Source of the DNA: a phage
Sequence record: PV467749.1
Strand: one strand, 5' to 3'
DNA: 64,000 bases
Shown: positions 27,451 through 52,281 of the stretch, piece after piece
How the letters are laid out: each line of letters begins with the position of its first letter
How positions within the stretch are numbered: position 1 is the stretch's first letter
Program-made: the position numbers and the translations under genes
The notes under the pieces: model-generated
The model's database searches: none
Told to the model about the DNA's origin: nothing
Seen by the model: only the letters and a program-made list of their open reading frames with translations

Positions 27451-27451
27451 A

Positions 27452-27643: not shown

Positions 27644-27651
27644 ATTATGTG

Positions 27652-28477: not shown

Positions 28478-28487
28478 TTGGTTTCCT

Positions 28488-28667: not shown

Positions 28668-28675
28668 ATTATTCC

Positions 28676-28864: not shown

Positions 28865-28871
28865 GTCTACC

Positions 28872-29051: not shown

Positions 29052-29059
29052 AGAGTACC

Positions 29060-29245
29060 TTAGATTGCTATCAGTTTGAGTACTTCAATATATGTGCGGT
29101 ACTCTGCTTTAATTAAATTTGTACACACTGTAAGGGAATTTCTTTGTATAAGTTTATTGCCGCTTTTATACGCATTTCTCCACACATAGAGATGAGATCT
29201 TTCAGGCATAGATAGTTTATTTGTATAGTACTCAAATGTGTTCAT
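29060..29245 (-). CDS. family-2 small protein
   Basis: MNTFEYYTNKL..YRTYIEVLKLIAI. Confidence 0.7.
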   Translation of the reverse strand: MNTFEYYTNKLSMPERSHLYVWRNAYKSGNKLIQRNSLTVCTNLIKAEYRTYIEVLKLIAI

Positions 29246-29253
29246 ATATTACC

Positions 29254-29436
29254 TCAAATAGAGATTAGTTTAAGTACTTCTCTGTATGTGTACTTTTCGT
29301 TTTGTGCATCTCTTGTGCTTGTATATAGGTATCCTCGACGATATTTGTTGCTCCCGTTCTTGTAGTTGAATTCGAACTTATTGTAGATGAATCTATCGCC
29401 AGGCTGTAATTTACTTAAGTACAATTCAATGTTCAT
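29254..29436 (-). CDS. family-2 small protein
   Basis: Start set at MNIELYLSKL (track 29457 adds MICKENT); ends YTYREVLKLISI. Confidence 0.65.
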   Translation of the reverse strand: MNIELYLSKLQPGDRFIYNKFEFNYKNGSNKYRRGYLYTSTRDAQNEKYTYREVLKLISI

Positions 29437-29446
29437 AGTATTCTCT

Positions 29447-29632
29447 TTACATATCAATAAGTTTCAGTACTGCTCTGTACGTGTACTTAGTTGTTAGTGC
29501 TTCTTTTATAGCAATACAGAAGTAATGTTGTTTGTCTCTTATACTACCGCGTTTGTAGTACCATACATTGGAGTTGTGGGTGTACTTGTCCCTGTCGGAT
29601 AGATTTTGGTAATAGTATAATATATGATTCAT
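29447..29632 (-). CDS. family-2 small protein
   Basis: MNHILYYYQNL..YTYRAVLKLIDM; ATGA overlap upstream. Confidence 0.7.
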   Translation of the reverse strand: MNHILYYYQNLSDRDKYTHNSNVWYYKRGSIRDKQHYFCIAIKEALTTKYTYRAVLKLIDM

Positions 29633-29841
29633 GGTAATGTAATTAGCCTTATTATGTTAAAGTACTCGGTCCCTGGTACACCTTGTAGAATATTATCAAC
29701 TACATTTTCTTGGTGCAGGATTAATACATTCGGTGCGGTTCTTTTAAGGTTTTTTAAAGTACTGTATTCTTGTTTAAGGATGAACTGTACATCTTTAGGG
29801 AGAATATCTAAGTAGTACTGGTGTATGTTCATAGTTTTCAT
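29629..29841 (-). CDS. family-2 small protein
   Basis: MKTMNIHQYYLDIL..YFNIIRLITLP. Confidence 0.7.
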   Translation of the reverse strand: MKTMNIHQYYLDILPKDVQFILKQEYSTLKNLKRTAPNVLILHQENVVDNILQGVPGTEYFNIIRLITLP

Positions 29842-29852
29842 ATAGTACTCTT

Positions 29853-30038
29853 TTAGAACTTAAAGATGAGGTTCATGATAGATAAGTACTTAGTTTCAGG
29901 AAATTGATGTTCTATTGCATAACGTGTCTCCAGTCTGAAGTCAAATTTATAAAAGGGACTATTCATATCCATAGGTTCATTGGGAAATGAATCTCTGTAT
30001 TGTTTGTGCAGCTTACTACAGTAGAATTCTTTATACAT
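29853..30038 (-). CDS. family-2 small protein
   Basis: MYKEFYCSKL..YLSIMNLIFKF. Confidence 0.7.
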   Translation of the reverse strand: MYKEFYCSKLHKQYRDSFPNEPMDMNSPFYKFDFRLETRYAIEHQFPETKYLSIMNLIFKF

Positions 30039-30039
30039 A

Positions 30040-30252
30040 TTAGTGCTCGATTAAAAGGGTTAGGATGTAATAGTATTGCATACTTTCTACCCCTTGTACA
30101 GCATTTCTTATTTTATTATTCCTGTACGAGTTCAAGAGTTTAGGACAATGTTTGAAGTTTATATAATTATTTTGTGTATACAGTAGGCTTTCTCGTAGAC
30201 CTTTTGTTGGTAGTGCATCAATGTAGTACTGTTCAATGTTCATAGTGTTCAT
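30040..30252 (-). CDS. family-2 small protein
   Basis: MNTMNIEQYYIDAL..YYYILTLLIEH; ATGA overlap. Confidence 0.7.
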   Translation of the reverse strand: MNTMNIEQYYIDALPTKGLRESLLYTQNNYINFKHCPKLLNSYRNNKIRNAVQGVESMQYYYILTLLIEH

Positions 30253-30476
30253 AGAGCTACCAGTACTAAGATTTTTGATAATTGTTTATTGCTATCCCCG
30301 CAGATGTTGCTGTGTAAAATACTCACTACAAGGGTATCAAGTGCATTGTTCAGCATAAGGTTACATCCAGTACTGTTATGTGTTTTTAGCTCAATTAGCC
30401 ACGAACTATCCGCGAGAAACTTCGCGTACTCTAGTTCATTTAGAGTATTAATGTAGTACTTAAGTGTAGTTGTCAT
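30249..30476 (-). CDS. family-2 small protein, first gene of the array
   Basis: MTTTLKYYINTLNELE..LSKILVLVAL; SD AAGGAG. Confidence 0.65.
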   Translation of the reverse strand: MTTTLKYYINTLNELEYAKFLADSSWLIELKTHNSTGCNLMLNNALDTLVVSILHSNICGDSNKQLSKILVLVAL

Positions 30477-30485
30477 GTACAGTTC

Positions 30486-30512
30486 TCCTTATATTCCTTA
30501 TATTCCTTCTAT
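30486..30512 (-). repeat. 3 x 9-bp tandem repeat in the leader of the family-2 array
   Basis: Plus strand: TCCTTATAT TCCTTATAT TCCTTCTAT. Minus strand: ATAGAAGGA ATATAAGGA ATATAAGGA (SD-like AAGGA x3). Confidence 0.8.
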
Positions 30513-30539
30513 AGTACATCAGTACTGAAAGGTTGTCAA
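30511..30539 (-). promoter_or_regulatory. sigma70-type promoter for the family-2 array
   Basis: TTGACA-N17-TACTAT on the minus strand, in the divergent gap shared with the RCC1 array. Confidence 0.65.
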
Positions 30540-30565
30540 GGGTTTTCTTTTTGGGGTAAATATGA

Positions 30566-30587
30566 TATAATGAATAAAGGAGGAAAT
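30566..30587 (+). promoter_or_regulatory. RCC1-array leader (-10 TATAAT + SD), copy 1
   Basis: TATAATGAATAAAGGAGGAAAT then ATG; no recognisable -35. Confidence 0.45.
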
Positions 30588-31724
30588 ATGTTACCTTTTG
30601 CAAGAATGGTTAAGTACGGGAACGTAGCACCAGATAAACTAAAAATACGTGATATTGTTGCAGGTGCTAATTCATTATTACTAATAACCGAGGATAATGA
30701 ATTATGGGTGCGTGGTAATAATGCGTATGGCAAATTAGGTATAGGAACTGATACTATAGTGAATGTAACCGAGTGGACTAAAGTTAGAGATGATGTTAAG
30801 TTTGCTTGTGCTAGTAATTTAGTATGCGTTGTATTAACTGTAGATAATAAAATTTTCTACTGTGGTGATCAATGGTTTGAATCTGGTGGTTCGACAAGTT
30901 CTAAAGTTGTTACATGGAAAGATGTTACGACACAATTTAGTGCAGTGAATCTAAGCACAGTTCGTGAAATGAAAATAACTTATTATTGTGTAGGATTACT
31001 TACAAATGATAATAGATTATATGCTAAAGGATATGATAATAACCAATCATTTGGTGGTTCAACAAGCAAAGTTAATGCTGTATTAGTTGCGTCAAATGTT
31101 TCAAAATTCTACACTTCTCTATCTGGTACTATATATTCTAGTACTACTGGTGGTTACTACCGCTGTGGTATAAGCAATACTGGAGCATTGGGTACTAGCA
31201 CAAATTTAACTTCTTATAATTTGTACTCTGCTCCCGAATTTGCATCCGAATGTGCAGTTGGTATGTCAACATTAAACTCTGGTATATTATATTATGATAC
31301 TAATGGTATCACTAGATATGTTATAGCAGGTCAAAATAGAAATTATCAACTAGGTAATTCTTCTTCAAATACCACAAACGTATATTCGTATACAGAATTA
31401 ACCGGATATAGAGGCAGGTTTAGGGATTTGTGGAGTGATATGAATAACTCTGTTCTTTCTTTTGCTATAAGCACAGATGGCAATACTTTATATTATGCTG
31501 GTACTAACAATACACTATCTTCTGGTGATCCTGGTGTTGAATATTCATCTGCATTTAAAGAAGTACCACACGGGTTTAATGATATAACAAAGGTGGTATC
31601 GTTAGCCTATCTATCTATAGTGCAAGATTCAACTGGATGGTATTATTCTGGAAATGCAACTACGTTATATGGTTTGCCATCGAGTGATGAATTTATACCA
31701 TTACCATTACCAACAATAATTTAA
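30588..31724 (+). CDS. RCC1-like seven-bladed beta-propeller protein, array copy 1
   Basis: Start at MLPFARMVKYGN (the track adds MNKGGN = translated SD). Blades e.g. LWVRGNNAYGKLGIG; close to copy 5. Confidence 0.85.
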   Translation: MLPFARMVKYGNVAPDKLKIRDIVAGANSLLLITEDNELWVRGNNAYGKLGIGTDTIVNVTEWTKVRDDVKFACASNLVCVVLTVDNKIFYCGDQWFESGGSTSSKVVTWKDVTTQFSAVNLSTVREMKITYYCVGLLTNDNRLYAKGYDNNQSFGGSTSKVNAVLVASNVSKFYTSLSGTIYSSTTGGYYRCGISNTGALGTSTNLTSYNLYSAPEFASECAVGMSTLNSGILYYDTNGITRYVIAGQNRNYQLGNSSSNTTNVYSYTELTGYRGRFRDLWSDMNNSVLSFAISTDGNTLYYAGTNNTLSSGDPGVEYSSAFKEVPHGFNDITKVVSLAYLSIVQDSTGWYYSGNATTLYGLPSSDEFIPLPLPTII

Positions 31725-31730
31725 ATACAG

Positions 31731-31757
31731 GCCAGTACTTGATACTGGCTTTTTTTG
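31731..31757 (+). terminator. rho-independent terminator
   Basis: GCCAGTActtgaTACTGGC + TTTTTTT. Confidence 0.8.
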
Positions 31758-31768
31758 ATTAAATATAG

Positions 31769-31790
31769 TATAATGAATAAGGGAGGGAAT
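31769..31790 (+). promoter_or_regulatory. RCC1-array leader cassette (-10 + SD), copy 2
   Basis: TTGATTAAATATAGTATAATGAATAAGGGAGGGAAT then ATG. Confidence 0.45.
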
Positions 31791-32939
31791 ATGTTACCTT
31801 TTGTAAGAATGTTTGATTATGGAAATGAAGCTCCTACCAACTCTGGTCGTTATAAAATATATTCCAGTGATTCTATGTATCTTCATGATACTTATACTGA
31901 CAAGTTGTATGCATCTTCTGCGACGAATTGGGGTACTGGTACAGGTGTAGCATCGAGTAAATTTATTCTTTGTGCGGAGAATGTTAAACGAGTTCTATTG
32001 GAAGATAACAGTAGTGATTGTCAATTGTATGAAGAGAAAGGTACTGGAAAAGTTTTTATCACTGGTAACACGAAGGCATTCACTGGTGTAACTGATAGAA
32101 AAACTTTGTGGACGGACTGTACTACGTGGATAACATCAAGTGGTATTAATGTTTCTGATATAAAATACATGAGTAGTTTTTATGATATGAAGGTGAATTT
32201 GATAACAAACGATGGTACATTGTATTGTTGTGGAGCTAACAATATATCGAACATATCATCATTTGGTGATGGCACAAACATTAATTCTTTTAACACATTC
32301 AAAAGAGTAGATACTATAACTTCGGTTAAAAAGGCTGTTGGTAACATTTATTTGCGAGAAGATAATACTTTATGGGGTTGTGGTTTTAACTATTACTACC
32401 AGTTGGGCACGGGTAATCAAACTTCTATTACTGGGGTGACGATGATTTCTTCGGATGTTATAGATTTTAATGTAAGTTATCAGAGTACATTTTTTATCAA
32501 ATCGGATAATAATTTGTACGCTTGTGGTAAACAGTTCGGTGCACAATATGGGAACGAATTTGGTACAGGTGGTACTTCCTCTTCTACTGATATACAATAT
32601 AAAACTCCGACATTATTGAGTTCAGGAGTTTATACTCTATATACTTGTGTTGGTAACATGGCATCACATATTGTCAAAGCAGATGAAGTTCTATATGCTT
32701 CTGGATCGAATAGGTTTGGGCAATTAGGTGTTGGTAATAATAATAATCAGTACTCCTATACTCCTTCATATACTTCGTTTAATACTTCGTGTAATTTGGT
32801 ACGCACTCCATCTGGTTCACTTATACTTACTGACACTTCGAAGTTATATTATTCGGGTGCTTCATTTGTAGTAATGGGTGGTGGTGCTGGACAGAACGTT
32901 CTTAATTATACCGAAGTCGATATGTCATTTGTGCAGTAA
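31791..32939 (+). CDS. RCC1-like beta-propeller protein, copy 2
   Basis: MLPFVRMFDYGN; LWGCGFNYYYQLGTG, LYASGSNRFGQLGVG. Confidence 0.85.
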   Translation: MLPFVRMFDYGNEAPTNSGRYKIYSSDSMYLHDTYTDKLYASSATNWGTGTGVASSKFILCAENVKRVLLEDNSSDCQLYEEKGTGKVFITGNTKAFTGVTDRKTLWTDCTTWITSSGINVSDIKYMSSFYDMKVNLITNDGTLYCCGANNISNISSFGDGTNINSFNTFKRVDTITSVKKAVGNIYLREDNTLWGCGFNYYYQLGTGNQTSITGVTMISSDVIDFNVSYQSTFFIKSDNNLYACGKQFGAQYGNEFGTGGTSSSTDIQYKTPTLLSSGVYTLYTCVGNMASHIVKADEVLYASGSNRFGQLGVGNNNNQYSYTPSYTSFNTSCNLVRTPSGSLILTDTSKLYYSGASFVVMGGGAGQNVLNYTEVDMSFVQ

Positions 32940-32947
32940 ATTAATAT

Positions 32948-32977
32948 GCCAGTACTTGAGTACTGGCTTTTCTTTTT
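32948..32977 (+). terminator. rho-independent terminator
   Basis: GCCAGTACTtgAGTACTGGC + TTTTCTTTTT. Confidence 0.8.
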
Positions 32978-32990
32978 GTATTAAATATAG

Positions 32991-33012
32991 TATAATGAAT
33001 AAGGGAGGAAAT
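32991..33012 (+). promoter_or_regulatory. RCC1-array leader cassette, copy 3
   Basis: TATAATGAATAAGGGAGGAAAT then ATG. Confidence 0.45.
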
Positions 33013-34122
33013 ATGTTACCTTTTGTAAGAATGGTTAAGTACGGGAATATTGCACCAGTACCGAAAAAAATAAAGAAAGTTATAGCAGGATATGATAATT
33101 TATATGTACTATATGGTGATGGTTCGCTATATGGTTGTGGAATCAATAACTATCAACAGTTAAATATTGATGGAACTGCTACACAAAATAATTGGGTACT
33201 AATTACCAATGGTGTTAGTAATGCATGGGCTGGTGGATACAATATTTTATATTTGAAAGAAGATAAATTTATAATGCACGGAACTAATGTCTCATTAGGT
33301 TTAGGAAATACTACAATTCCATTAGGTGGAGTAGATGTAACTTCTTCATTCCCAGATATCTCTAATATTAAAATGATATCCATTGGTTTTGATTCAATGC
33401 ACTATGTTAGTGCTGATGGTACAACTGTATATGGAAGAGGTATGAACACAAATGGTTCTGTTGGTTCAGGTAGTACTTACTCACAGAGTACTTTCACTTC
33501 AGTACTGAATAATGGAACTAATCAGGTTATTGATATATTTGGTAACGTTAATAATACAGTGCTTCTAACATCGAATGGTGAGCTTCGAGCATGTGGGACA
33601 AGTGCTTATGGTTCTATAGGAAATGAAACTGGTAAGTGGACATCGTTTGGTTTAAAATTATCTGGCACTAAAATAATGGGTGGTAATGGGTATAGTACGC
33701 TTGCATATACAAATTCGGGAATGTACCACTCAGGGTGGCAGTTAAATGGGGAACTAGGAAATGGTTTAAATACTAACGTACAGGTATATCCATTTCAATT
33801 TAACTCTAAAACGATAGATAGCAAGATAGATAAAATTGCCAAATCATCATCTGGGTCATATGTTAACATGTACTCAACAACAGAAGGAAAGATATATACG
33901 ACAGGTTCGTTTGGTAAAAACGGGTCAACTACTGCATTGAATTTGTTCACCAATACATTAACACTTATAAATTACAATCCAGATACCGCCTCGTTGTATA
34001 CGTGCACAAACTTCAGTGTTGTGTATGATGGTAATGAAACTATTGCTGTAAGTGGTAGTCCTACATATGTACCAGGGGGCGTTGCCGCTAATAGATGGAC
34101 TACAATTCCATTACCCAAGTAA
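33013..34122 (+). CDS. RCC1-like beta-propeller protein, copy 3
   Basis: MLPFVRMVKYGNIAP; LYGCGINNYQQL, VYGRGMNTNGSVGSG, MYHSGWQLNGELGNG. Confidence 0.85.
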   Translation: MLPFVRMVKYGNIAPVPKKIKKVIAGYDNLYVLYGDGSLYGCGINNYQQLNIDGTATQNNWVLITNGVSNAWAGGYNILYLKEDKFIMHGTNVSLGLGNTTIPLGGVDVTSSFPDISNIKMISIGFDSMHYVSADGTTVYGRGMNTNGSVGSGSTYSQSTFTSVLNNGTNQVIDIFGNVNNTVLLTSNGELRACGTSAYGSIGNETGKWTSFGLKLSGTKIMGGNGYSTLAYTNSGMYHSGWQLNGELGNGLNTNVQVYPFQFNSKTIDSKIDKIAKSSSGSYVNMYSTTEGKIYTTGSFGKNGSTTALNLFTNTLTLINYNPDTASLYTCTNFSVVYDGNETIAVSGSPTYVPGGVAANRWTTIPLPK

Positions 34123-34128
34123 TACTAT

Positions 34129-34155
34129 GCCAGTACTTGATACTGGCTTTTTTTT
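34129..34155 (+). terminator. rho-independent terminator
   Basis: GCCAGTActtgaTACTGGC + T8. Confidence 0.8.
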
Positions 34156-34167
34156 GATTAAATATAG

Positions 34168-34190
34168 TATAATGAATAAAGGAGGGAATT
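34168..34190 (+). promoter_or_regulatory. RCC1-array leader cassette, copy 4
   Basis: TATAATGAATAAAGGAGGGAATT then ATG. Confidence 0.45.
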
Positions 34191-35318
34191 ATGTTACCTT
34201 TTGTTAGAATGTTTGATTATGGGAATATAATCGAAGTTAATAATATAAAGAAAAGTGTTGTTAGTTACACTCTTGAAATGTTTCTAATGCAAGATGGCAC
34301 TGTATATGCACACGGTGAAGATTCAAACTATAATGCGGGTTTAAGTACACAGTTTGTATCGTTAGGAGCAGTTCAACAAATCACAACTGAAGTTGATGAC
34401 TTATGGTTAGGATCGTTTTCCGTTGTTATTAAAGGTGATAAAATATATGGTTCAGGTTCAACATATGCATTCACGAATTCTAATACTTTCCAACAAGGAT
34501 ATACTGACTGGGCTGTGTATTTCACTGGTATAGATGTTACCCAAATTAAAAAAATGTTATGTGGTTATACAGCATTTATATTAATGAAAGACGGAACACT
34601 TTATGGAAGAGGATGGAATCGAAGTGGTGCATTAGGTTTAGGACATAAAAATTATGTTTCAGCGTGGACTGTACTTGACACTAATGTGGATAATATATTT
34701 GGCGGTTACCTTGGCGATACATTGTTTAAGATTAAAAACGATGGAACTGTATATGGTTCAGGTTCAAATAACAGCTTTCAAGTTAAAGCAACATCGGGTG
34801 ATGCAACCACATTTGTTCCATTGTTTGATGATATATCTTATGATATAAAATGCAGTTTTGTTTCTGGTGTTGGTTTTGTAATGATAACATCTGATAATAA
34901 AATATATACAACTGGAACTACTTTTGCTGGTAGTGGTGCACATAGTAAAGTTTTTGATGTTGGTTTTACTATAGGTGATATGAGTAATATATATCATCCT
35001 GATTCGTTGGACTATTCGACTAGTGTTGTATTTTTAATTAATGCAGATACAAACAAACTAATAGCAACTGGGCATACCCCATTTACGGGAAGTAGTTCAA
35101 GTTCCCTTCCATATTTTACAGCATTTCAAGAATTCAATTTTACATCGTTCAATTCGAATACACGATATAGTGGGTCTTTATACTGGAATACATTTTACGA
35201 AGGTAATAATGTATGGATGAATGGATATAATCCTGAAAATACGGGTGGAAAGAATTTCTCATTGTGTTCAATACCGTTAGATACTATTATTACTAAGCAA
35301 ATTGATTTACCTTTTTGA
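34191..35318 (+). CDS. RCC1-like beta-propeller protein, copy 4
   Basis: MLPFVRMFDYGN; LYGRGWNRSGALGLG, VYGSGSNNSFQV. Confidence 0.85.
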   Translation: MLPFVRMFDYGNIIEVNNIKKSVVSYTLEMFLMQDGTVYAHGEDSNYNAGLSTQFVSLGAVQQITTEVDDLWLGSFSVVIKGDKIYGSGSTYAFTNSNTFQQGYTDWAVYFTGIDVTQIKKMLCGYTAFILMKDGTLYGRGWNRSGALGLGHKNYVSAWTVLDTNVDNIFGGYLGDTLFKIKNDGTVYGSGSNNSFQVKATSGDATTFVPLFDDISYDIKCSFVSGVGFVMITSDNKIYTTGTTFAGSGAHSKVFDVGFTIGDMSNIYHPDSLDYSTSVVFLINADTNKLIATGHTPFTGSSSSSLPYFTAFQEFNFTSFNSNTRYSGSLYWNTFYEGNNVWMNGYNPENTGGKNFSLCSIPLDTIITKQIDLPF

Positions 35319-35325
35319 ATACTAT

Positions 35326-35353
35326 GCCAGTACTTGATACTGGCTTTTTTTTT
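35326..35353 (+). terminator. rho-independent terminator
   Basis: GCCAGTActtgaTACTGGC + T9. Confidence 0.8.
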
Positions 35354-35365
35354 GATTAAATATAG

Positions 35366-35388
35366 TATAATGAATAAAGGAGGGAATT
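35366..35388 (+). promoter_or_regulatory. RCC1-array leader cassette, copy 5
   Basis: Identical cassette sequence. Confidence 0.45.
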
Positions 35389-36510
35389 ATGTTACCTTTT
35401 GTTAGAATGTTTGATTATGGAAATGAAGTACCTGATCCTAGTTCGGGATTTCGAATAATAAGTACAGGAGACGCATTACTATTAATTACTAAGAGTGGTG
35501 ATTTGTGGGTGCGTGGTTATAACCGTTATGGTAAGTTAGGTATAGGTAATAACACCACTACCTATGTACTTGATTGGACGAAGGTTAGAAGTGATGTAAA
35601 GTTTGCGTGTGGTAGTGGATTGGTAACAGTTATCTTTACTAAGGATAATCGCATATTGTACTGTGGTGACAAATGGTTTGAAACGGGTGGTGTTGGTAGT
35701 GCACAGATTTTCACATGGACAGATGTTACGCATCAATTTGGGGTAGTAGATTTGAGTACTGTAAGGGATATGAAAATATCTTATTACGCGATTGGGTTAG
35801 TTACTACTAATAATCAATTATACGCTAAGGGATTTGATAATAACCTATCATTTGGTGGGGTTACTAATAAGGCGACTGCTGTGTTTATTGCGAATAATGT
35901 ACAAGAGTTGTATACGAGTTTAGTTAGTACTATCTACGTTGATACAAGTGGTATATTACATCGTTGTGGCATGAGTGATAACGGTTCGTTGGGTAATAAT
36001 GGTAGTTTAACTTCGTATCTAAGTTATTCACAGACTGGTATGACGATTAAGGACATTGGAATGATGACTACGAACACTGGGTTATTATATACTGATTCTA
36101 GTGCACGCACGAGATATTTTATTGCTGGACAGAACTTGAATAAACAGATGGGTAATGCGGCGGGTGCGAGTGCCATTACGAGTACTTACACAGAGCTTTC
36201 TGGTAGTGTTGATAAGTTTTCTTCTTTATGGGAGAATGATGGGATATTGATGACATTTGCTGTGGGTAAGAACACTAATCAGTTATTTTATGCTGGGATG
36301 AATACTTTTCATGCGAGTGGTGGTGAATCTTCATATGCGGATACATATGAGTTAGTCCCGATGGTGTTTAATGACATACAGGAAGTGTTATGTGCACAGC
36401 GTTTATCGGTGGTACATGATTCTACGAAGTGGTATTACTGTGGTGATGCTAATTCAATGTATGGTTTACCGGACGTAAGTACTTTTACTGAGTTACCGTT
36501 GCCCTTTTAA
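35389..36510 (+). CDS. RCC1-like beta-propeller protein, copy 5
   Basis: MLPFVRMFDYGN; LWVRGYNRYGKLGIG; close paralog of copy 1. Confidence 0.85.
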   Translation: MLPFVRMFDYGNEVPDPSSGFRIISTGDALLLITKSGDLWVRGYNRYGKLGIGNNTTTYVLDWTKVRSDVKFACGSGLVTVIFTKDNRILYCGDKWFETGGVGSAQIFTWTDVTHQFGVVDLSTVRDMKISYYAIGLVTTNNQLYAKGFDNNLSFGGVTNKATAVFIANNVQELYTSLVSTIYVDTSGILHRCGMSDNGSLGNNGSLTSYLSYSQTGMTIKDIGMMTTNTGLLYTDSSARTRYFIAGQNLNKQMGNAAGASAITSTYTELSGSVDKFSSLWENDGILMTFAVGKNTNQLFYAGMNTFHASGGESSYADTYELVPMVFNDIQEVLCAQRLSVVHDSTKWYYCGDANSMYGLPDVSTFTELPLPF

Positions 36511-36516
36511 TAATAG

Positions 36517-36546
36517 GTCAGTACTCAAGTACTGGCTTTTCTTTTT
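36517..36546 (+). terminator. rho-independent terminator
   Basis: GTCAGTACTcaAGTACTGGC + TTTTCTTTTT. Confidence 0.75.
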
Positions 36547-36558
36547 GATTAAATATAG

Positions 36559-36581
36559 TATAATGAATAAAGGAGGGAATT
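36559..36581 (+). promoter_or_regulatory. RCC1-array leader cassette, copy 6
   Basis: Identical cassette sequence. Confidence 0.45.
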
Positions 36582-37763
36582 ATGTTACCTTTTGTTAGAA
36601 TGTTTGATTATGGGAACGTCGTTGAGCCACCTGTGGGTACACGTTATACCTGTAGTGACTATAGTGCGACTTATAGTTTAATAAAGGATGGTGTGTTATA
36701 TGTATCTGGGATGAATAACTATTATCAGTTAGGTAATAACACTAACGTAACACGTTACAACGAGTGGTTAAAAGTTCCAGAGACTGATAGTGTTAAGTTT
36801 TGTAGTACTGGTTATAGTCAGACAATGTATCTGACTAACAATGGTAGGATAATGATAGCAGGTGAAGATCCTACTTCCAGTGCGACTTCGGTAAGTGTAA
36901 AGGTTTGGACGGATATAACTTCTAGATTTCGTGCAGTTGATACTAAAAAGATTGTTTATATTTCAATAGAACGCTTTGGTGTAATGATGATCATGGAAGA
37001 TGGTTCAGTATGGGCGTGTGGTGTTGATAATACTGGTTGGAGTGGACAAGGGAGTAAGACTGTTGGTTTCTTTACTTTCAGACAAATATACACCGGAAGT
37101 GCAGGAAGTGCAGTTGCTTGTACTGCTGGTACTGGTACTGCGAGAATTCTGTTAGCTAATGGAACAATCTTGTCCTCTGGTACTAATACATATCATCAAT
37201 GTAATGCTAGTACTAATCCGGCTGTTCTAACATTCACTGAATCATTCCCTGGGGTTGATCCTTCATTGATATATCAAATCAAGATGTGTAATAACAACTG
37301 TATTATATTTTTGAGTGATAAGAGATATTACGGTACTGGCTGGGGAAGTTTTGGTGCATTGGGTGATGGTGATATTACGGGTTCGAATAATAAATTCTAT
37401 GCAGGTACATTGTCAGTTGCTCCTAAAAACATGCGTGCTTATATGTCGTATCTATGTAGTTCTTCTGGGGATTCTAGTATGTACATAGGCGATGATAATT
37501 TCATATACACCTGCGGTTATCGTGGGAGGAACTTAATAAATGCCACTACAGATATTGGTACGTTCACGAAATGCATTCAAAGTGCACAAGGATACAAGAA
37601 TGGACTTATATATAGTGGGAATTATTGTGCTGTAGTTTTTGATCCAGATTTGGGTTCAGGAATGTCATATGCGGTTTCATCACCAAAATTGAATTCTCCA
37701 GCACCACAGGCTAGTGTTCCAGCATTGGGTATGAGTTCGTTACAATCTATCATTTTACCATAA
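36582..37763 (+). CDS. RCC1-like beta-propeller protein, copy 6
   Basis: MLPFVRMFDYGN; LYVSGMNNYYQLGNN, YYGTGWGSFGALGDG. Confidence 0.85.
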   Translation: MLPFVRMFDYGNVVEPPVGTRYTCSDYSATYSLIKDGVLYVSGMNNYYQLGNNTNVTRYNEWLKVPETDSVKFCSTGYSQTMYLTNNGRIMIAGEDPTSSATSVSVKVWTDITSRFRAVDTKKIVYISIERFGVMMIMEDGSVWACGVDNTGWSGQGSKTVGFFTFRQIYTGSAGSAVACTAGTGTARILLANGTILSSGTNTYHQCNASTNPAVLTFTESFPGVDPSLIYQIKMCNNNCIIFLSDKRYYGTGWGSFGALGDGDITGSNNKFYAGTLSVAPKNMRAYMSYLCSSSGDSSMYIGDDNFIYTCGYRGRNLINATTDIGTFTKCIQSAQGYKNGLIYSGNYCAVVFDPDLGSGMSYAVSSPKLNSPAPQASVPALGMSSLQSIILP

Positions 37764-37766
37764 ATG

Positions 37767-37802
37767 ATACCAGTACTGAAATACGTACTGGTATTTTTTT
37801 GT
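37767..37802 (+). terminator. rho-independent terminator
   Basis: ATACCAGTACtgaaatacGTACTGGTAT + T8. Confidence 0.8.
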
Positions 37803-37810
37803 AAATACAT

Positions 37811-37837
37811 TATAATTATTATATGGAGATTTTAGTT
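37811..37837 (+). promoter_or_regulatory. variant leader (-10 + SD), copy 7
   Basis: TATAATTATTATATGGAGATTTTAGTT then ATG. Confidence 0.4.
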
Positions 37838-38968
37838 ATGTTACCTTTTGTTAGAATGTTTGATTATGGGAATACAGTGGCTGCTCCCACTGGTATAAAG
37901 GATTTCCAAGCAAATGGAAGCCACTGTATGGCACTAACATATAGTGGTGAGATGTGGGCTTATGGTACAAGTACAAGTGGATCAATGGGAACCGGATTCA
38001 CGGTGGGTGCTGCTGATAAGGGTTGGTACAAGTCTAACATTAGTAATGTTAAATCATTCAGTTCTAATATGCAGACTAGCACAGTGGCTTTGACAAATGA
38101 TGATAGAGTGCTAGTTTGTGGCTCAACTAGATTTGACAAATTCAGTACTCCAGATATTGCATCATCTAACCTTGATTGGTTGGATGTTACTGATCATATT
38201 CCACAGGAAGTTATTGATGCTGGGATGAAGCAAGTTATTAACCACGCATATTATGTTGCCATTTTTACTGAAAACAATCTATTATATAGTGTGGCATTAT
38301 CTTTGGGTAATACTAGTACTATAATAGATAGAACATGGCGAAGAAATACATTTGGTGATATACAAGTTGAACGTGTTGTTTCGTTGACACAAACCCCAAG
38401 TGGTCCTTTGTGTATAGTTCAAGATGCTGCCGGATACCAGTATGGTATTGGATATAATGGTAATAAGATTATTGATAATACTTCCACTAATTCATATTCT
38501 GTATATACCAAAATGGGTACACTTCCTTACAATGAATTTGCCATATCGAATAGCGGGAAATTCAGTTCAGCGGTATTATCAGATGGGAGAAGTGTTTATA
38601 GTGGTACATTTCCAAAGTCATTCAATGATAGTTTTGGTTCATTTTTGAAAGTTGGTGCGGTATCAAATACTGTGTTTGGTTTAGATGCAAAAAATATGCG
38701 TGGTCAATATGGTCAAAATCAATTACCAATTGCGTCGGCTGATAACAATGCAAGTAATGGCGTTGTGAGCCTTCGTAATGTTCCAGCGGGAACACAAACG
38801 AAAGACATTCGATTTATATGCGGAAATGATGTAAAGAACGTTTATATCATATACACAAATGAAGACGGCATTAGTTCATTTTATGGATTGGGACCAAACT
38901 TTGATCAAAATTCCTCAGCATATGCACAATTCGTCAAAGTGGATTTGCCAGGGGCATTACTAAATTAA
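37838..38968 (+). CDS. RCC1-like beta-propeller protein, copy 7
   Basis: Start at MLPFVRMFDYGN (the track adds MEILV); more diverged blades (MWAYGTSTSGSMGTG). Confidence 0.8.
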   Translation: MLPFVRMFDYGNTVAAPTGIKDFQANGSHCMALTYSGEMWAYGTSTSGSMGTGFTVGAADKGWYKSNISNVKSFSSNMQTSTVALTNDDRVLVCGSTRFDKFSTPDIASSNLDWLDVTDHIPQEVIDAGMKQVINHAYYVAIFTENNLLYSVALSLGNTSTIIDRTWRRNTFGDIQVERVVSLTQTPSGPLCIVQDAAGYQYGIGYNGNKIIDNTSTNSYSVYTKMGTLPYNEFAISNSGKFSSAVLSDGRSVYSGTFPKSFNDSFGSFLKVGAVSNTVFGLDAKNMRGQYGQNQLPIASADNNASNGVVSLRNVPAGTQTKDIRFICGNDVKNVYIIYTNEDGISSFYGLGPNFDQNSSAYAQFVKVDLPGALLN

Positions 38969-38978
38969 GGAGAGAAAT

Positions 38979-47787: not shown

Positions 47788-48939
47788 ATGTTACCTTTTG
47801 CAAGAATGGTTAAGTACGGGAATATTTCACCTGTTCCTGCAACACCAACTATAAAAGATTTTAAGATTGGTTTTACCCATGAAGTGTTATTGGACAGTGC
47901 AGGTGATGTGTGGGGTATTGGATATAATACCGCTGGACAGTTGGGATTTCTGGATGCTAACACAAATTCAATAGGAATGTGGTCTAAGATACATGAGAAT
48001 GTTAGATTAATTGGCGTTACTGCCAAATATACTGTAGTTGTTACAAATGATAATAGAATACTTTACGCCGGAAATAACTTAATTTCTAGTACTACAACGC
48101 TTGGGTGGAACGATATAACGTCCAGTATGGGAGAGGTTGCAGTGGATAGTATAGATACATTATATTGCACAGATGGAATGATGCATATTAAAACTGCTGA
48201 TGGCTCTTTATATGCATATGGACGTAATATGAACGCGAACGCTGGAGTTACAGGCGTTTCTGGCGTTATTAGTGTTGCAACTAAAGTTAATGGTTTACCA
48301 TCGGCAGTGAAGGATATACGATATACGTTTAGTTATGGTTCAGTACTATGCCAATTTGATACCACTTCGGTATATGGATGGGGAAGAAATGTCAATGGTG
48401 AATTAGGTCAGGGGAATGCAGCCGCAGTTCCTGCCCCATACCTATTGGCGGGAGCTTCTATTGTTATAGGTACTTCTTATAATGCTACTGCCATTGTTTC
48501 TGGTACTGGAACGTTAGTTACATGTGGTGGACAAAATAATGGTCAGTTAGGTAATGGTATTACTACTGCTGGTAATGTATACATATATGGTGCTAGGTCA
48601 TACCCTGGCGATCTTAATAATATAAGAAGTCCAGTAGATTGTAGTACAACTTATACTTCCGCATTTATGAGTACAGATGGTATATATTACACGGGTTCGA
48701 ACCGAAGTGTTTTTGGTGGTGCGAGTGGTTCTGCTACTGTTGCATTATATACTAAATGTAGTGATTTGCCAATATTATATTCCAATATAACTCAGTGGGG
48801 TAGTGGTACTATTGGTGGGGCGATATGTAGCAGAACTGAATTATATCAGTGTGGTACAGGTAGATACATTGCCGGAGATGGACAGAACGCAACTAGGTAT
48901 GGGTTTAGAAAGACACCATTACCTTGGGATGTTTATTGA
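47788..48939 (+). CDS. RCC1-like beta-propeller protein, copy 15
   Basis: MLPFARMVKYGNISP. Seven clear blades: VWGIGYNTAGQLG, VYGWGRNVNGELGQG, LVTCGGQNNGQLGNG ... Confidence 0.9.
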   Translation: MLPFARMVKYGNISPVPATPTIKDFKIGFTHEVLLDSAGDVWGIGYNTAGQLGFLDANTNSIGMWSKIHENVRLIGVTAKYTVVVTNDNRILYAGNNLISSTTTLGWNDITSSMGEVAVDSIDTLYCTDGMMHIKTADGSLYAYGRNMNANAGVTGVSGVISVATKVNGLPSAVKDIRYTFSYGSVLCQFDTTSVYGWGRNVNGELGQGNAAAVPAPYLLAGASIVIGTSYNATAIVSGTGTLVTCGGQNNGQLGNGITTAGNVYIYGARSYPGDLNNIRSPVDCSTTYTSAFMSTDGIYYTGSNRSVFGGASGSATVALYTKCSDLPILYSNITQWGSGTIGGAICSRTELYQCGTGRYIAGDGQNATRYGFRKTPLPWDVY

Positions 48940-48944
48940 AATAA

Positions 48945-48975
48945 TGCCAGTACTCAAGTACTGGCATTTCTTTTA
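48945..48975 (+). terminator. terminator between convergent genes
   Basis: TGCCAGTACTcaAGTACTGGCA + TTTCTTTT. Confidence 0.75.
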
Positions 48976-49623
48976 CATATTATATAATGTGAATGCAGTC
49001 ACTTTACCAGTTGTTGTTAGTTCATTATAAAGATACTCCAAGATTCTCGCACACTCTAAGTATATCTCGATATCATCATGAATAAGTGAGTACTGAAATA
49101 GCTGTTCTTCAGGTAATTTGTATTGACTTCCTTTTAATGAATTGAGAATATCTTTCACATCATCAAGTACTGGGTAAAGTACGAAATCTTCATCATATTT
49201 TGAAGCAATAAATTCAAATCCACCACCATCAGTACTAGATATACCAATCAGTACTTTATCAATCAAGTTAATGTTTATATAACGGTTGTGATTTGGGTGA
49301 ATTGAAATCTCAAACATACGAGTACTGTTACAATCAACATCAATATACAAATATACATCATTGAATTTATAAGTTAAACAACCGTACTCAAGAAAATCAG
49401 AACAAATAATTGATGAGTTTTTTCTTGTCTCTGCGTAATGCATCTTGATATTCTTTTCACGCATAAGTAATTCGAACTTTGCACTAAACTTGCCACCAGC
49501 AAGATAGTTAGTATTAGGACGTTTGTAACTTGCAACTGGTCGGTGGGATGATGTAAAGTATTTTTTTGTGAATCGTTTCTGTTTAGTGAAATATTCTTGA
49601 TAGAACTTACTTCTTTTATTCAT
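48973..49623 (-). CDS. hypothetical 216-aa protein inverted inside the RCC1 array; distant paralog of 27818..28477 and 62828..63400
   Basis: Basic N-terminus MNKRSKFYQEYFTKQ (family-2-like); KLPEEQLFQYSLI motif. Confidence 0.75.
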   Translation of the reverse strand: MNKRSKFYQEYFTKQKRFTKKYFTSSHRPVASYKRPNTNYLAGGKFSAKFELLMREKNIKMHYAETRKNSSIICSDFLEYGCLTYKFNDVYLYIDVDCNSTRMFEISIHPNHNRYININLIDKVLIGISSTDGGGFEFIASKYDEDFVLYPVLDDVKDILNSLKGSQYKLPEEQLFQYSLIHDDIEIYLECARILEYLYNELTTTGKVTAFTLYNM

Positions 49624-49700
49624 GAGTACCTCAATTAAATCGCTGTAAAATTGTACATTATAAAATGATTAAATAAAGTATAACACAAGGAGATTTTATC

Positions 49701-50825
49701 ATGTTACCTTTCGTATTGTTATTTGATTATGGGAACGAAAAACAAGAAAGTTCTTATGATGTTAGTGTATATGGAAACAATAACTACATTTTAAATAAAC
49801 AAACTGGAAACCTTTTTGCATCCGGTGCTGCGGCATTCATGGGTGATAACACAGTTAAGTATTATATTACCCAAATAGAATCAAATGTTCATAGCTGTGA
49901 GATAGGTTTCCTATCATCATGGATAATTAAGAAGGACAAAACTGTTTTCATTTTAGGAAACAAAAGCAGTATAGGATTAACTGGTTCGACAACATCATGG
50001 TTCGAAATTACAAATTTATTTTCTGCTGTTCCTGAAATATGGGACAACCTATTTGAATGTAAAGTTCAATTGGGATATAACTGTATACGTGTTATGACAC
50101 CACTAGGATCAATCTATGCGATTGGTACAAACACTTATGGTGCATTGGGTACTGGTACTACATCCTCATCAACTTCGTTCGTTAAAAGTGGTGCTGTGGA
50201 TGCTGTACGCATGGAATCAACAGAACGTTCAGTGTTCTATCAAAACAGTTCTGGACAATGGTTTGGATGTGGTGATAACACATATGGTATACTAGGTCTA
50301 GGAACTACCGCGAGTCGTGTAAACTCATACACCGCACCAGTATGGACTAATGCAGAAGCTGTTAGCTTCTCTAACCGTGGGATCATATACAGCCTCAATG
50401 GTACTCTATACTCATGTGGTGACAAAGTTAATGGTCAGCTAGGGGATGGATATACACAAAGCATAGACGCTGCCAGGAGCACACCATACACCATAGGAAC
50501 CGCATTCCAAATTGGTAAGGCAATAACATCAGCTACACAAGCATCAGCCAACGTATTCATTGGTAAAGATAATAAGTTCTATGGTACTGGTAGTATTGCT
50601 GCTGGTATAAATGGTAGTACTAGTGCTGCATTAAGTAAAGTTACTGCGTTATCAGCAGCACTACCACCTGACATTACATACAATGATATTATAACATTTA
50701 ATACAGGGACCGTAACTTTTATTCAAGCAAAAGGACAACTATATTATGTTGGTAGAAGAACTTACATAGATAATAGTTCAGACGTTACCACACAGTTCAG
50801 TGTAATTGGTGGCTTAGATAATTAA
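49701..50825 (+). CDS. RCC1-like beta-propeller protein, copy 16
   Basis: MLPFVLLFDYGN; IYAIGTNTYGALGTG, WFGCGDNTYGILGLG, LYSCGDKVNGQLGDG; unique upstream region. Confidence 0.85.
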   Translation: MLPFVLLFDYGNEKQESSYDVSVYGNNNYILNKQTGNLFASGAAAFMGDNTVKYYITQIESNVHSCEIGFLSSWIIKKDKTVFILGNKSSIGLTGSTTSWFEITNLFSAVPEIWDNLFECKVQLGYNCIRVMTPLGSIYAIGTNTYGALGTGTTSSSTSFVKSGAVDAVRMESTERSVFYQNSSGQWFGCGDNTYGILGLGTTASRVNSYTAPVWTNAEAVSFSNRGIIYSLNGTLYSCGDKVNGQLGDGYTQSIDAARSTPYTIGTAFQIGKAITSATQASANVFIGKDNKFYGTGSIAAGINGSTSAALSKVTALSAALPPDITYNDIITFNTGTVTFIQAKGQLYYVGRRTYIDNSSDVTTQFSVIGGLDN

Positions 50826-50831
50826 AATTAA

Positions 50832-50860
50832 TCCAGTACTATTATAGTACTGGATTTTTT
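50832..50860. terminator. bidirectional terminator between convergent arrays
   Basis: TCCAGTACTattatAGTACTGGA flanked by T-runs on both strands. Confidence 0.75.
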
Positions 50861-50861
50861 A

Positions 50862-51233
50862 TTATAACATACGTTTTTTACGAATAGTATTGTGGATATT
50901 TTTTAAGTAGTTCACACCTTTACACAACCCATAAAATACACCAGCACATACACCAAATGCAGGTATCATACATGCAAACATCGTTATCAATTCCCACATC
51001 TCCATGCCATCTTGATTCGGTCCAAGGTCAAAGATAACAACCGAAACCAAACCTGTGATACTTAGCATATAATATGCCATGAAGATAATAAAAGAAACAA
51101 TACCAACATCAGAGCGAACTGAATTTAGCATATTATATACTGGGGTTACACAGAAGTAATACAATAACCAAATCAAAGAACCTAAACTAAACACAATAAT
51201 AGTAATGATCGAAAATATTTCACGATAACTCAT
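50862..51233 (-). CDS. small multi-pass membrane protein, TM family member
   Basis: 123 aa, 3-4 hydrophobic helices, basic tail IHNTIRKKRML. Confidence 0.75.
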   Translation of the reverse strand: MSYREIFSIITIIVFSLGSLIWLLYYFCVTPVYNMLNSVRSDVGIVSFIIFMAYYMLSITGLVSVVIFDLGPNQDGMEMWELITMFACMIPAFGVCAGVFYGLCKGVNYLKNIHNTIRKKRML

Positions 51234-51234
51234 T

Positions 51235-51597
51235 TTAGTTCCTCTTACCTAAACGCTCATGGATTTCGGAAATCTTATTATACATCCATGCCAGCAACTC
51301 AACGGATGCACAGAGAATAACCACACACAGTGTTAGTGAACATACCATAATACCAAATGTTATAAAATTCGAACTCGATGTTAATAATGCAACCAGCATT
51401 AGAATAAAACCAAAATTGAATGCTGTACTCAACACAGTATATGCTGGACTATATCTCCTTTGTATTACATCATATATATTTGATAATGGTCGCTTATGGA
51501 AGTACTTCCCAATGCACACGAATGCATTCAGTGAGAAGATAAATGTATACGCCATTACCATTAATTGACCAATAAAAGATAATTCAATATTATTCAT
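51235..51597 (-). CDS. small multi-pass membrane protein, TM family member
   Basis: 120 aa; tail IHERLGKRN. Confidence 0.75.
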   Translation of the reverse strand: MNNIELSFIGQLMVMAYTFIFSLNAFVCIGKYFHKRPLSNIYDVIQRRYSPAYTVLSTAFNFGFILMLVALLTSSSNFITFGIMVCSLTLCVVILCASVELLAWMYNKISEIHERLGKRN

Positions 51598-51598
51598 G

Positions 51599-51970
51599 TT
51601 ATCCTCGTTTGCGGTATTTGATGCTTTGGTGCATTCTCTGAAAATGTGGAACTAATACATATTGTACGGTTTGCCAAATTACCATCAGATTATGGACAGC
51701 ACCACCGAGTAGACCAAACACTACACAGATAATTGCCAGTACTGGATCACCATCTACCATACCCCATTTGAATATATGTAAAATCCATACAGTGATAAGT
51801 AGTAATAAACTAATCCAATACGTAGTAAAAAATCCTGCATGTAATTCATAGTCATCAGCAATTTCATCGTATACGGTTTCCAAGAAGGATACACAGAAGA
51901 ACTTGCCAATAATAATAATTGTACTAATAAACAACATAGCAGTTAATATAATAAGTGCAATTTCCATCAC
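51599..51970 (-). CDS. small multi-pass membrane protein, TM family member
   Basis: 123 aa; tail MHQSIKYRKRG; ATGA overlap upstream. Confidence 0.75.
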   Translation of the reverse strand: MMEIALIILTAMLFISTIIIIGKFFCVSFLETVYDEIADDYELHAGFFTTYWISLLLLITVWILHIFKWGMVDGDPVLAIICVVFGLLGGAVHNLMVIWQTVQYVLVPHFQRMHQSIKYRKRG

Positions 51971-52281
51971 ATCCCTCGTTTACGCTTTTGATTGCGTCTA
52001 AATTCGGTTAGCCCACGACTAATCGGTGGCATCAGACTACATAAAAAAATAACAGTTGTTGGTAATAACATGAAGTCAATCATTGCTGTATTAACAGGTG
52101 GATCACATACCAAATAATACAAACAAGTAATACTAATTATGGTTGACCCAATAAAAGGAATACAAAATTCTTTTATCTGTTTTTCAACATAATCAAACAT
52201 CTTCAATACAAATAAAAATCCAACCCAACACATAATAAAATAGAATGAATAAAGCGTGTAAATCAATGTTACGATATCCAT
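51967..52281 (-). CDS. small multi-pass membrane protein, TM family member
   Basis: 104 aa; tail EFRRNQKRKRGM. Confidence 0.75.
   Translation of the reverse strand: MDIVTLIYTLYSFYFIMCWVGFLFVLKMFDYVEKQIKEFCIPFIGSTIISITCLYYLVCDPPVNTAMIDFMLLPTTVIFLCSLMPPISRGLTEFRRNQKRKRGM

Follow-up and report, generated by a model that had tools for sequence, protein, structure and literature searches.

A 64,000-nucleotide stretch of phage DNA (sequence record PV467749.1; hereafter, the window) carries at positions 30588–50825, on the plus strand, a single tandem gene family of about 20 kb whose products are RCC1-like β-propellers. The family takes up 31.6% of the window, in keeping with the "nearly a third" of a preliminary description made from the sequence alone. 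By megablast, the window belongs to the Asteriusvirus group of jumbo coliphages, with genomes of about 350–386 kb, such as WPEC3, CMSTMSU, EJP2, G17, 121Q, PBECO4, and phAPEC6. Its right flank is 98.7% identical to WPEC3 over the full length, and the array matches each relative only piecewise.

The preliminary description knew of no phage role for such an array, which overlooks copies listed in two papers (PMC5259590, PMC7247149). Multi-copy RCC1 genes were reported in this group in 2017 and 2020: multiple copies in 121Q and PBECO4, in the paper on phage CBB (PMC5259590), and eleven copies in phAPEC6, for which a role in DNA ordering was speculated (PMC7247149). GenBank labels the products "regulator of chromosome condensation" or "DNA condensation protein." A functional study of the phage RCC1 family or of its leader was not found in literature searches that extended to the papers on Sharanji, fEgEco12, XbC2, and JP4. 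The family is thus documented already and its function is not; new here are the late-promoter cassette architecture, a leader that crosses fold types, and evidence for cassette exchange.

Genes and products of the array

All 16 start positions proposed in the preliminary description are ATG codons opening an MLPF... product, as judged from the open reading frame (ORF) listing and by direct translation. Fifteen of the genes are intact at 369–449 residues; the eleventh, counted there as intact, is frameshifted. For comparison, the syntenic loci of seven genomes were used (the window, WPEC3, EC22.5-2, ECO103, EJP2, G17, and TH47), whose 98 genes fall into 36 types when clustered at 65% identity; the letters below denote these types.

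The array is preceded by a divergent intergenic region (30477–30587) with the first late-promoter-like box, GGGTAAATATGATATAAT at 30557–30571, and a Shine-Dalgarno sequence, AAAGGAGG. Gene 1 (30588–31724; type R, 378 residues) begins with the leader MLPFARMVKYGN, encodes an RCC1-like propeller, and is 96% identical to copy 1 of G17. A cassette spacer at 31725–31790, with a terminator hairpin GCCAGTACTTGATACTGGC and T-run, a TAAATATAGTATAAT box, and a Shine-Dalgarno sequence, leads to gene 2 (31791–32939; type A, 382 residues; leader MLPFVRMFDYGN), and a spacer with hairpin, T-run, late-like box, and Shine-Dalgarno sequence (32940–33012) leads to gene 3 (33013–34122; type G, 369 residues), which has a hybrid leader, MLPFVRMVKYGN. 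Spacers at 34123–34190, 35319–35388, and 36511–36581 precede gene 4 (34191–35318; type Z, 375 residues; nearest counterpart among the six other phages in EJP2, at 63%), gene 5 (35389–36510; type L, 373 residues), and gene 6 (36582–37763; type D, 393 residues), respectively. The spacer at 37764–37837 is of a second type (GTAAATACATTATAAT ... GGAG) that is found throughout the EJP2 array.

Gene 7 (37838–38968; type E, 376 residues) opens what is probably a three-gene operon. Gene 8 (38979–40181; type B, 400 residues) follows after merely 10 nt and has neither promoter nor terminator of its own, and gene 9 (40190–41299; type C, 369 residues) follows after 8 nt. Spacers at 41300–41369, 42540–42612, 43793–43863, and 45043–45112 then precede, in turn, gene 10 (41370–42539; type F, 389 residues), the frameshifted gene 11 (42613–43792; type H), gene 12 (43864–45042; type S, 392 residues), and gene 13 (45113–46288; type T, 391 residues). 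A spacer with an imperfect hairpin (46289–46367) stands before gene 14 (46368–47717; type U, 449 residues), the most divergent copy, and another spacer (47718–47787) before gene 15 (47788–48939; type I, 383 residues). Here the array is broken by an unrelated minus-strand gene of 216 residues (48973–49623; phrog_34359). Gene 16 (49701–50825; type M, 374 residues; leader MLPFVLLFDYGN) has a variant box, TAAATAAAGTATAAC, that resembles the box of the tail-tube gene, and a bidirectional terminator hairpin at 50830–50856 ends the array.

In gene 11, the frame opened by the leader spans 59 codons and reaches a stop at about 42790, whereas the propeller body is encoded in the +1 frame, by an ORF (42716–43792) that remains open over its 358 codons. 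When the gene is compared with genes 10 and 13, the lesion maps to about 42741–42743, just 3' of "YMRG," where it fits a 2-nt deletion. An identical 59-codon stub is present in WPEC3, EC22.5-2, and ECO103, which identifies gene 11 as an inherited pseudogene rather than a one-off read error. Programmed frameshifting was considered and rejected, because genes 10 and 13, taken as references, argue for a plain 2-nt deletion, truncated copies also occur in relatives, and no slippery motif was obvious when the sequence was judged by eye.

The assignment of one RCC1-like, seven-bladed propeller to each product, without an enzymatic or fibre domain, is borne out by Pfam, PHROG, and AlphaFold2/Foldseek analyses, with models made for genes 14 and 15. 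Pfam RCC1, RCC1_2, or WD40_RLD matches (PF00415, PF13540, PF25390) were obtained for 15 of the 16 products. The gathering score for RCC1 or RCC1_2 was reached by 13 copies, the body of gene 11 included, with genes 5, 9, and 14 below it; whole-domain WD40_RLD scores of 31–116 bits always lay under the 150-bit cut-off. Gene 14 has no Pfam match and is recognized by phrog_4219 (E = 3e-16), a family annotated "regulator of chromosome condensation" that was matched by all six copies scanned (genes 1, 6, 7, 12, 14, and 16; E 3e-16 to 2e-56). The window proteins cover only positions 419–786, the C-terminal half, of the 867-position phrog_4219 profile. The PHROG scan also returned a weak match to tail-protein family 20500.

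The AlphaFold2 model of gene 15 is all-beta, with a predicted local distance difference test score (pLDDT) of 78.5 and a predicted template-modelling score (pTM) of 0.83. In Foldseek, its template-modelling (TM) scores against UVR8, RPGR, HERC2, and RCC1 were 0.67–0.77, with UVR8 at 0.74–0.77 (E = 7e-22) and RCC1 at 0.70. The gene 14 model is of lower confidence (pLDDT 68.6), and its best match is still UVR8 (TMt 0.63–0.65). A profile search of Protein Data Bank sequences gave RCC1, UVR8, and HERC domains at E values of 1e-24 to 1e-35; it returned eukaryotic RCC1-like domains only, with no phage structure. Searches of the same sequences for a virion structure containing a family member or a protein of the GAP32_002 type (see below) found none. 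The eukaryotic domains (RCC1, UVR8, RPGR, HERC1/2) share the seven-bladed propeller and the RCC1 repeat signatures with the array proteins, but identity is just 16–19%, and the phage proteins add the leader and linker, have more degenerate repeats, and stand in a viral late-gene context.

The gene 15 model also fold-matches proteins of Pseudomonas phages Littlefix and PollyC that are annotated as tail fibres (E about 1e-16, TMq 0.66), annotations that are themselves predictions; the PollyC protein carries a T7 tail-fibre N-terminal domain. In these proteins the propeller is fused to a long fibre, whereas the only extra element in the array proteins is the 12-residue leader, so attachment would need non-covalent docking of a separate small protein. 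The array proteins are 40–49 kDa in size and acidic to neutral, with isoelectric points of 4.8–8.5 and net charges of −11 to +3. A HMMER search with the family profile against 1.84 billion representative proteins retrieved 142,580 generic RCC1 proteins, topped by giant multi-domain proteins, and nothing informative on the leader family. A word-indexed homologue search returned close phage relatives, a few leader-bearing metagenomic proteins, and otherwise ordinary bacterial RCC1 surface proteins.

Several further statements of the preliminary description can be revised at this point. The first 12 residues are strongly conserved, as it said, across the 98 genes of the seven genomes, and the blades are, again as it said, strongly diverged relative to this N-terminus. 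Its C-terminal motif, F-x-x-[IV]-x-LP, is real but present in only about 9–10 of the 16 copies. The "recent duplicates" were overstated: genes 1 and 5 are 51% identical and genes 10, 11, and 13 are 34–39% identical, against a median of 28% over all pairs. Nor are the propellers bare of any candidate anchor, as the conserved leader and a proline-rich linker lie outside the modelled fold, the leader being the best candidate for an anchoring or targeting element.

Cassette spacers and putative late-type promoters

Alignment of the 16 upstream regions revealed a nearly invariant spacer of ~70 nt. In this spacer, the hairpin GCCAGTACT-loop-(A/G)TACTGGC and its T-run come first; next is the box (G/T)(A/T)TTAAATATAGTATAAT, and then AATAAAGGAGG, about 5 nt of spacing, and the ATG. 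The sequence TAAATAnnnTATAAT occurs exactly 13 times in the window, each time upstream of an array gene. The window has 27 terminator-like sites where shuffled sequence predicts 7.9; for sigma-70 promoters there is no enrichment (88 found versus 103 expected). A simple host-promoter, early-gene reading was rejected on account of this lack of sigma-70 enrichment and of cassettes that have no −35 element.

Two promoter-like elements lie in the cassettes, a TATAAT hexamer 17–23 nt from the ATG and a TAAATA core at −31/−32. With TATAAT so near the ATG, transcription starting from it would begin in or beside the Shine-Dalgarno site, and a start from the TAAATA core gives a normal transcript leader of about 20 nt. 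The TAAATA box precedes 14 of the 16 array genes versus 4 of the 95 other candidate ORFs in the window. In the structural region of phAPEC6, nnTAAATA is found 24–66 nt 5' of the ATG in gp234, 238, 242, 244, 245, 247, 250c, 253, and 256; some of these structural genes have the exact T4-late consensus TATAAATA, and others share the ATTAAATA and GGTAAATA variants of the array. The phAPEC6 late-sigma gene gp237c and gp246c have TATAAT alone, without nnTAAATA. In the complete TH47 genome, the full box is restricted to sites preceding array genes, the gene for the tail tube, and a single gene for a virion structural protein, plus site 209578. CBB and GAP32 late genes use ATAAATA, and these phages encode a gp55-like sigma factor (PMC5259590).

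Because the array box matches those of structural genes and is rare elsewhere in the window and in TH47, we infer that the array is transcribed late, from promoters that would be read by the phage gp55-like late sigma factor. By their sequence layout, most genes would form separate transcription units consisting of a terminator hairpin, an nnTAAATA core, a strong Shine-Dalgarno sequence, and the ORF. As a separate observation, three box-bearing ORFs outside the array (63455–63691, 61861–62259, and 59194–59445, minus strand) have TAAATA 35–42 nt upstream, and the ORFs at 59194–63691 sit where WPEC3 annotates virion structural proteins.

The arrangement is reminiscent of the promoter-plus-stem-loop (PeSL) cassettes that Arbiol et al. 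in 2010 are said to have found mediating modular shuffling in the hyperplastic regions of T4-type phages. In both, conserved spacers with a hairpin and a promoter flank the ORFs, and bodies are exchanged while the recipient's flanks are retained. The array differs in that its promoter core is of the late type, the block of homology reaches into the first 12 codons, and a single protein family is involved.

The MLPF leader and exchange of propeller bodies

The leader follows the consensus M L P F [VAG] R [MLI] [FVLIM] [KDNET] Y G N, with [IVE][AV]-P-x-P after it, and is present in all 16 genes of the window; 98 of the 98 genes compared start with MLPF. R6, Y10, G11, and N12 are retained despite synonymous codon variation, which indicates that constraint acts on the protein. 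In both models the leader is without secondary structure (pLDDT <50 in gene 15, mean about 51 in gene 14). Across the whole TH47 genome, MLPF leaders occur in array genes and none elsewhere.

In relatives outside Asteriusvirus, the leader heads proteins of other folds. GAP32_002, which lies beside the RCC1 homologue of that phage, is a 211-residue protein annotated "virion structural protein" that starts with MLPFARIFRYGD and has a weak Laminin_G_3 match; GAP32_530 starts with MLPFARIIKFG. In Xanthomonas phage XbC2, eleven consecutive genes (581–591; 357194–367543, minus strand) all start with MLPFP, and annotation or scans assign 581 and 586 to the RCC1 type, 582 to LamG, 590 to Kelch, and 591 to RCC1 at its N-terminus. 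One gene of this cluster, which looks like a mixed-fold counterpart of the Asteriusvirus array, is annotated "structural protein." Among the proteins of the cluster is a 688-residue one with an RCC1 N-terminal part and a C-terminal half of Kelch-like appearance. In Yersinia phage fHe-Yen9-04, the five tandem RCC1 genes that were read all begin with MLPF. Homologues of GAP32_002 in 148-kb Vequintavirinae phages have no MLPF leader, and a search for such homologues in Asteriusvirus found none.

Since it heads RCC1, LamG, and Kelch proteins in relatives and is confined to the array in the Asteriusvirus genome, the leader is, as far as these comparisons of sequence reach, a portable, lineage-specific N-terminal module placed on several ligand-binding fold types. 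A different leader, MLEAML..GKS, is shared by gp182 and gp170 of Escherichia phage 4MG. The first of these is annotated as virion structural and is homologous to GAP32_002, and gp170 looks similar. It may therefore be more generally the case that small lectin-like virion proteins carry leaders specific to their lineage. Within the window, the leaders form two main classes, V-R-M-F-D-Y (acidic) and A-R-M-V-K-Y (basic), which differ at positions 5, 8, and 9 and are independent of body type; those of G17 and EJP2 are comparable but more varied. The two classes could reflect two docking sites or gene conversion.

The array differs between phages in both number and order of its members. At the syntenic locus there are 16 copies in the window, WPEC3, EC22.5-2, and ECO103, 14 in EJP2, 13 in G17, and 7 in TH47. 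With truncated or frameshifted copies in parentheses, the order of types is R A G Z L D E B C F (H) S T U I M in the window, A G D E B C F (H) N J O I (V) U W M in WPEC3, R B C X A a J (P) T b (V) F (Q) in G17, and E C (c) A L D B d K e f g S h in EJP2. Such damaged copies occur in five of the seven arrays, and the set of types in the window is its own among the genomes compared. The RCC1 genes have also been described as among the most divergent between phages of one species in the fEgEco12 paper.

Fifteen of the 16 window genes have orthologues at 72–100% identity (gene 4, 63%). Most copies have counterparts at 90–100% in other phages, which makes the paralogues old. For gene 5 and its EJP2 orthologue, nucleotide identity is 99–100% in the body and falls to 74% over the leader codons and to 65% and 63% over the two flanks, and genes 7 and 1 show the same pattern of body and flank identity. 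Leader variants track the genome, not the orthologue: the core of type A is VRMFDY in the window, ARMMNY in G17, and ARILEY in EJP2. These sequence comparisons show whole propeller bodies to have been exchanged between phages at cassette boundaries. The ratio of nonsynonymous to synonymous substitution rates (dN/dS) between orthologues is 0.12–0.40 in most pairs, with a median of 0.23 and a value of 0.70 for a single pair of low divergence. These values led to the rejection of positive selection as the origin of the diversity and indicate instead that the genes are maintained by selection and that variety comes from cassette exchange within an old pool. Diversity would arise mainly by the swapping of whole bodies between co-infecting relatives, through recombination in the conserved cassette boundaries, and not by fast point evolution.

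The true homologues of the array are the phrog_4219 members of Asteriusvirus and Rak2-like phages (phAPEC6 gp549–551 and gp001–010; 121Q 234–248; PBECO4; GAP32 gp001), which share the leader, the cassette spacers, and a syntenic locus between an array of small genes and an array of membrane-protein genes. In WPEC3 and G17 the locus lies between small-gene and three-transmembrane (3-TM) membrane-protein arrays, and in EJP2 the membrane-protein side is present; the leader-gene clusters of GAP32 and XbC2 likewise adjoin a membrane-protein array. As GAP32 and XbC2 show comparable adjacency, the propeller and membrane-protein arrays appear, from gene order, to be conserved neighbours across genera.

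In the window, the small-gene array lies directly upstream and divergent (25876–30476, minus strand). It is a second tandem paralogue array, with about 20 packed genes of 59–78 residues whose products start with sequences such as M-N/Q-x-x-E-Y/F-Y and end with sequences such as VLKLI or LIYRx; a 219-residue gene (27818–28477; phrog_29152) interrupts it, and WPEC3 and G17 have similarly sized small-gene runs at the same position. Directly downstream (50862–53301, minus strand) are seven tandem genes for hydrophobic, probably membrane, proteins of 104–123 residues, one scanned copy of which is phrog_27618. Comparable arrays are GAP32 522–527, annotated as 3-TM membrane proteins, and XbC2 569–577, similarly sized and unannotated. 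The 216-residue minus-strand gene within the propeller array is found at the same place in WPEC3, and G17 has a 219-residue minus-strand gene just past its array. Beyond the small genes, about 1.8 kb (about 24050–25870) contains short ORFs only, unlike the flanking arrays, and the guanine-cytosine skew changes sign near 26 kb.

Virion association and competing roles

Proteins with the MLPF leader have been detected repeatedly in virions. The single GAP32 homologue, gp001, was found there by mass spectrometry (PMC5259590), and the virion proteome of phAPEC6 lists gp003, 005, 006, 007, 009, 010, 549, and 551 (PMC7247149). All eight were confirmed here as array members, including gp007, which is truncated to 269 residues. 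The virion proteome file of JP4 contains three MLPF-leader sequences, two of which are JP4_581 and JP4_577, with one peptide each, and a LamG homologue of CBB is annotated as structural. Leader-bearing proteins thus recur in the virion proteomes or structural annotations of GAP32, CBB, phAPEC6, and JP4. The particles of phAPEC6 and CBB bear unexplained hairs and fibres on tail and capsid.

A tentative model, the strongest of those considered although it falls short of being probable, is that the array is a library of interchangeable, late-expressed, leader-loaded binding proteins on the virion, acting as externally displayed accessory adhesins. Each product comprises, as its sequence and the two models show, the 12-residue leader, a short proline-rich linker, and one RCC1-like seven-bladed propeller. 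The leader would act as a transferable loading signal that brings the protein onto the virion or into it, as the published virion proteomes of relatives suggest. The propeller would serve as a variable ligand-binding head, an accessory adhesin on a hairy, fibre-decorated particle, and one virion or lysate may carry a mixed panel of specificities. External adhesins are favoured because RCC1, Kelch, and LamG are binding scaffolds and because of the fold-matches to tail fibres, the C-terminal alignment to phrog_4219, and the hairs and fibres of the particles. Of the roles listed in the preliminary description, a ligand-binding panel and virion-associated or ejected proteins correspond to the two readings ranked highest here.

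A more specific form of this proposal is possible but doubtful. In it, MLPFxRxxxYGN is the docking peptide of a previously undescribed "plug-and-play" virion display in Rak2-like jumbo phages, in which any of dozens of interchangeable lectin-like heads may occupy a common site on the particle and co-infecting phages trade heads by means of the late-promoter/terminator cassettes. With the same reserve, Asteriusvirus would use RCC1 propellers as heads, Mimasvirus would use Kelch and LamG domains besides RCC1, and the mixture of adhesins would differ per lineage and perhaps per virion. Known systems with multiple receptor-binding proteins, such as the CBA120 tailspikes, G7C, K1-5, and the depolymerase sets of RaK2 and K64-1, resemble the array in having, within one phage, many horizontally swapped binding modules and a conserved N-terminal attachment element. 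They consist, however, of trimeric beta-helix spikes whose genes lie in the tail module and whose adaptors measure at least about 100 residues, whereas the array encodes small propellers with a 12-residue leader.

Several points weigh against external display. The position on the outside of the particle is a prediction, and no docking partner for the leader was identified. Receptor-binding proteins are typically fibre trimers whose genes lie in the tail module; the array encodes predicted monomeric propellers with no fibre domain, in an accessory region among small genes. Peptide counts in phAPEC6 and JP4 are low (1–5), and the phAPEC6 list also holds thymidylate synthase, a subunit of a topoisomerase, the single-stranded DNA-binding protein SSB, and a RecA-like protein, so that abundant late proteins may have contaminated the preparation. 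The late-promoter assignment comes from motif comparison, and the TATAAT of the cassettes could also permit transcription by host sigma-70. Finally, the AlphaFold2 alignments were shallow (16 and 26 sequences), which leaves the disorder of the leader unproven.

The main rival, which we regard as unlikely, is that the propellers are packaged internal or ejected effectors. The leader would then be a capsid-targeting sequence, and the proteins would be loaded in the prohead, possibly into an inner body of the phAPEC6 type, and enter the cell with the DNA to bind or inhibit proteins of host defence or other host proteins; the shuffled repertoire would track host defence diversity. T4 internal proteins have an N-terminal capsid-targeting sequence of roughly 10 residues, and internal-protein loci are polymorphic in T-even phages. 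The array resembles them, in form only, through a short common N-terminal peptide (~12 residues, on diverse proteins, and predicted to lie outside the fold) on variable late proteins with a late-like promoter type, a locus that is hypervariable between near-identical phages, and detection in virions by mass spectrometry. An inner body is present in phAPEC6 particles, and in BLIP-II an RCC1-like propeller acts as a tight protein inhibitor.

The resemblance does not extend to the proteins themselves. At 40–49 kDa, the array products are four to five times larger than the small, charged T4 internal proteins, and they are folded and not highly charged. The conserved (L/I)xE protease site is absent after the leader, which has K, D, N, E, or T at position 9 and is followed by I, V, E, or K at position 13 and P-x-P at positions 15–17; none of positions 9–18 holds a conserved Glu. 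The low peptide counts disfavour these proteins as the bulk of a multi-megadalton inner body, and the LamG, Kelch, and RCC1 folds, together with the RCC1-like matches among tail fibres, point to external binding.

Less likely still is that the propellers are abundant, soluble cytoplasmic effectors made late (or early and late), which would bind proteins of the host or the phage during infection, for instance as decoys or inhibitors, and whose presence in virion proteomes is contamination and whose leader serves translation initiation, folding, or partner recognition. High abundance is predicted by the strong Shine-Dalgarno sequences and promoters, the phAPEC6 virion list includes obviously non-structural proteins, the JP4 detections are of one peptide each, and the locus lies among small accessory genes outside the structural module. 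However, contamination would have to account for leader proteins in four phages (GAP32, CBB, phAPEC6, and JP4), where virion data or annotation point to them, and for eight array genes in the phAPEC6 proteome, one of them truncated. Outside the array, it is at tail-tube and structural genes that the full promoter box occurs, and conservation of YGN at the protein level, with synonymous variation, is unexplained by translation initiation alone.

Eukaryotic RCC1 is a guanine-nucleotide exchange factor for Ran, and we know of no Ran homologue in bacteria or phages. The "DNA condensation" label appears to be a transfer of that name only, as the isoelectric points are acidic to neutral, bacteria lack Ran, and the set of copies is variable and dispensable. 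Proteins that condense or organize the genome, ordering packaged DNA like RCC1 or forming the inner body, are very improbable: against the similarity in sequence and fold to eukaryotic RCC1, the presence in virions, and the suggestion of the phAPEC6 authors (PMC7247149) stand best fold matches to UVR8, RPGR, and HERC2, which are protein-binding scaffolds rather than DNA binders, charges unexpected for DNA-compacting proteins, a copy number of 7–16, frequent pseudogenes, and differing sets in phages that are 98–99% identical in the adjoining DNA. The readings therefore rank as displayed adhesins first, then packaged effectors, then contaminating cytoplasmic effectors, and DNA organizers last.

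Jumbo coliphages of this group have been proposed for therapy, and about 5% of each genome is devoted to the propeller family. If the leader is a virion-loading signal, this would explain why near-identical phages differ mainly in array genes, and a very small tag would become available with which a large phage could be made to display foreign proteins. Should the propellers instead be ejected effectors, the array would represent a large collection of inhibitors of host factors, all of the propeller type. Under both readings, the database label of DNA or chromosome condensation is misleading and should not be propagated.

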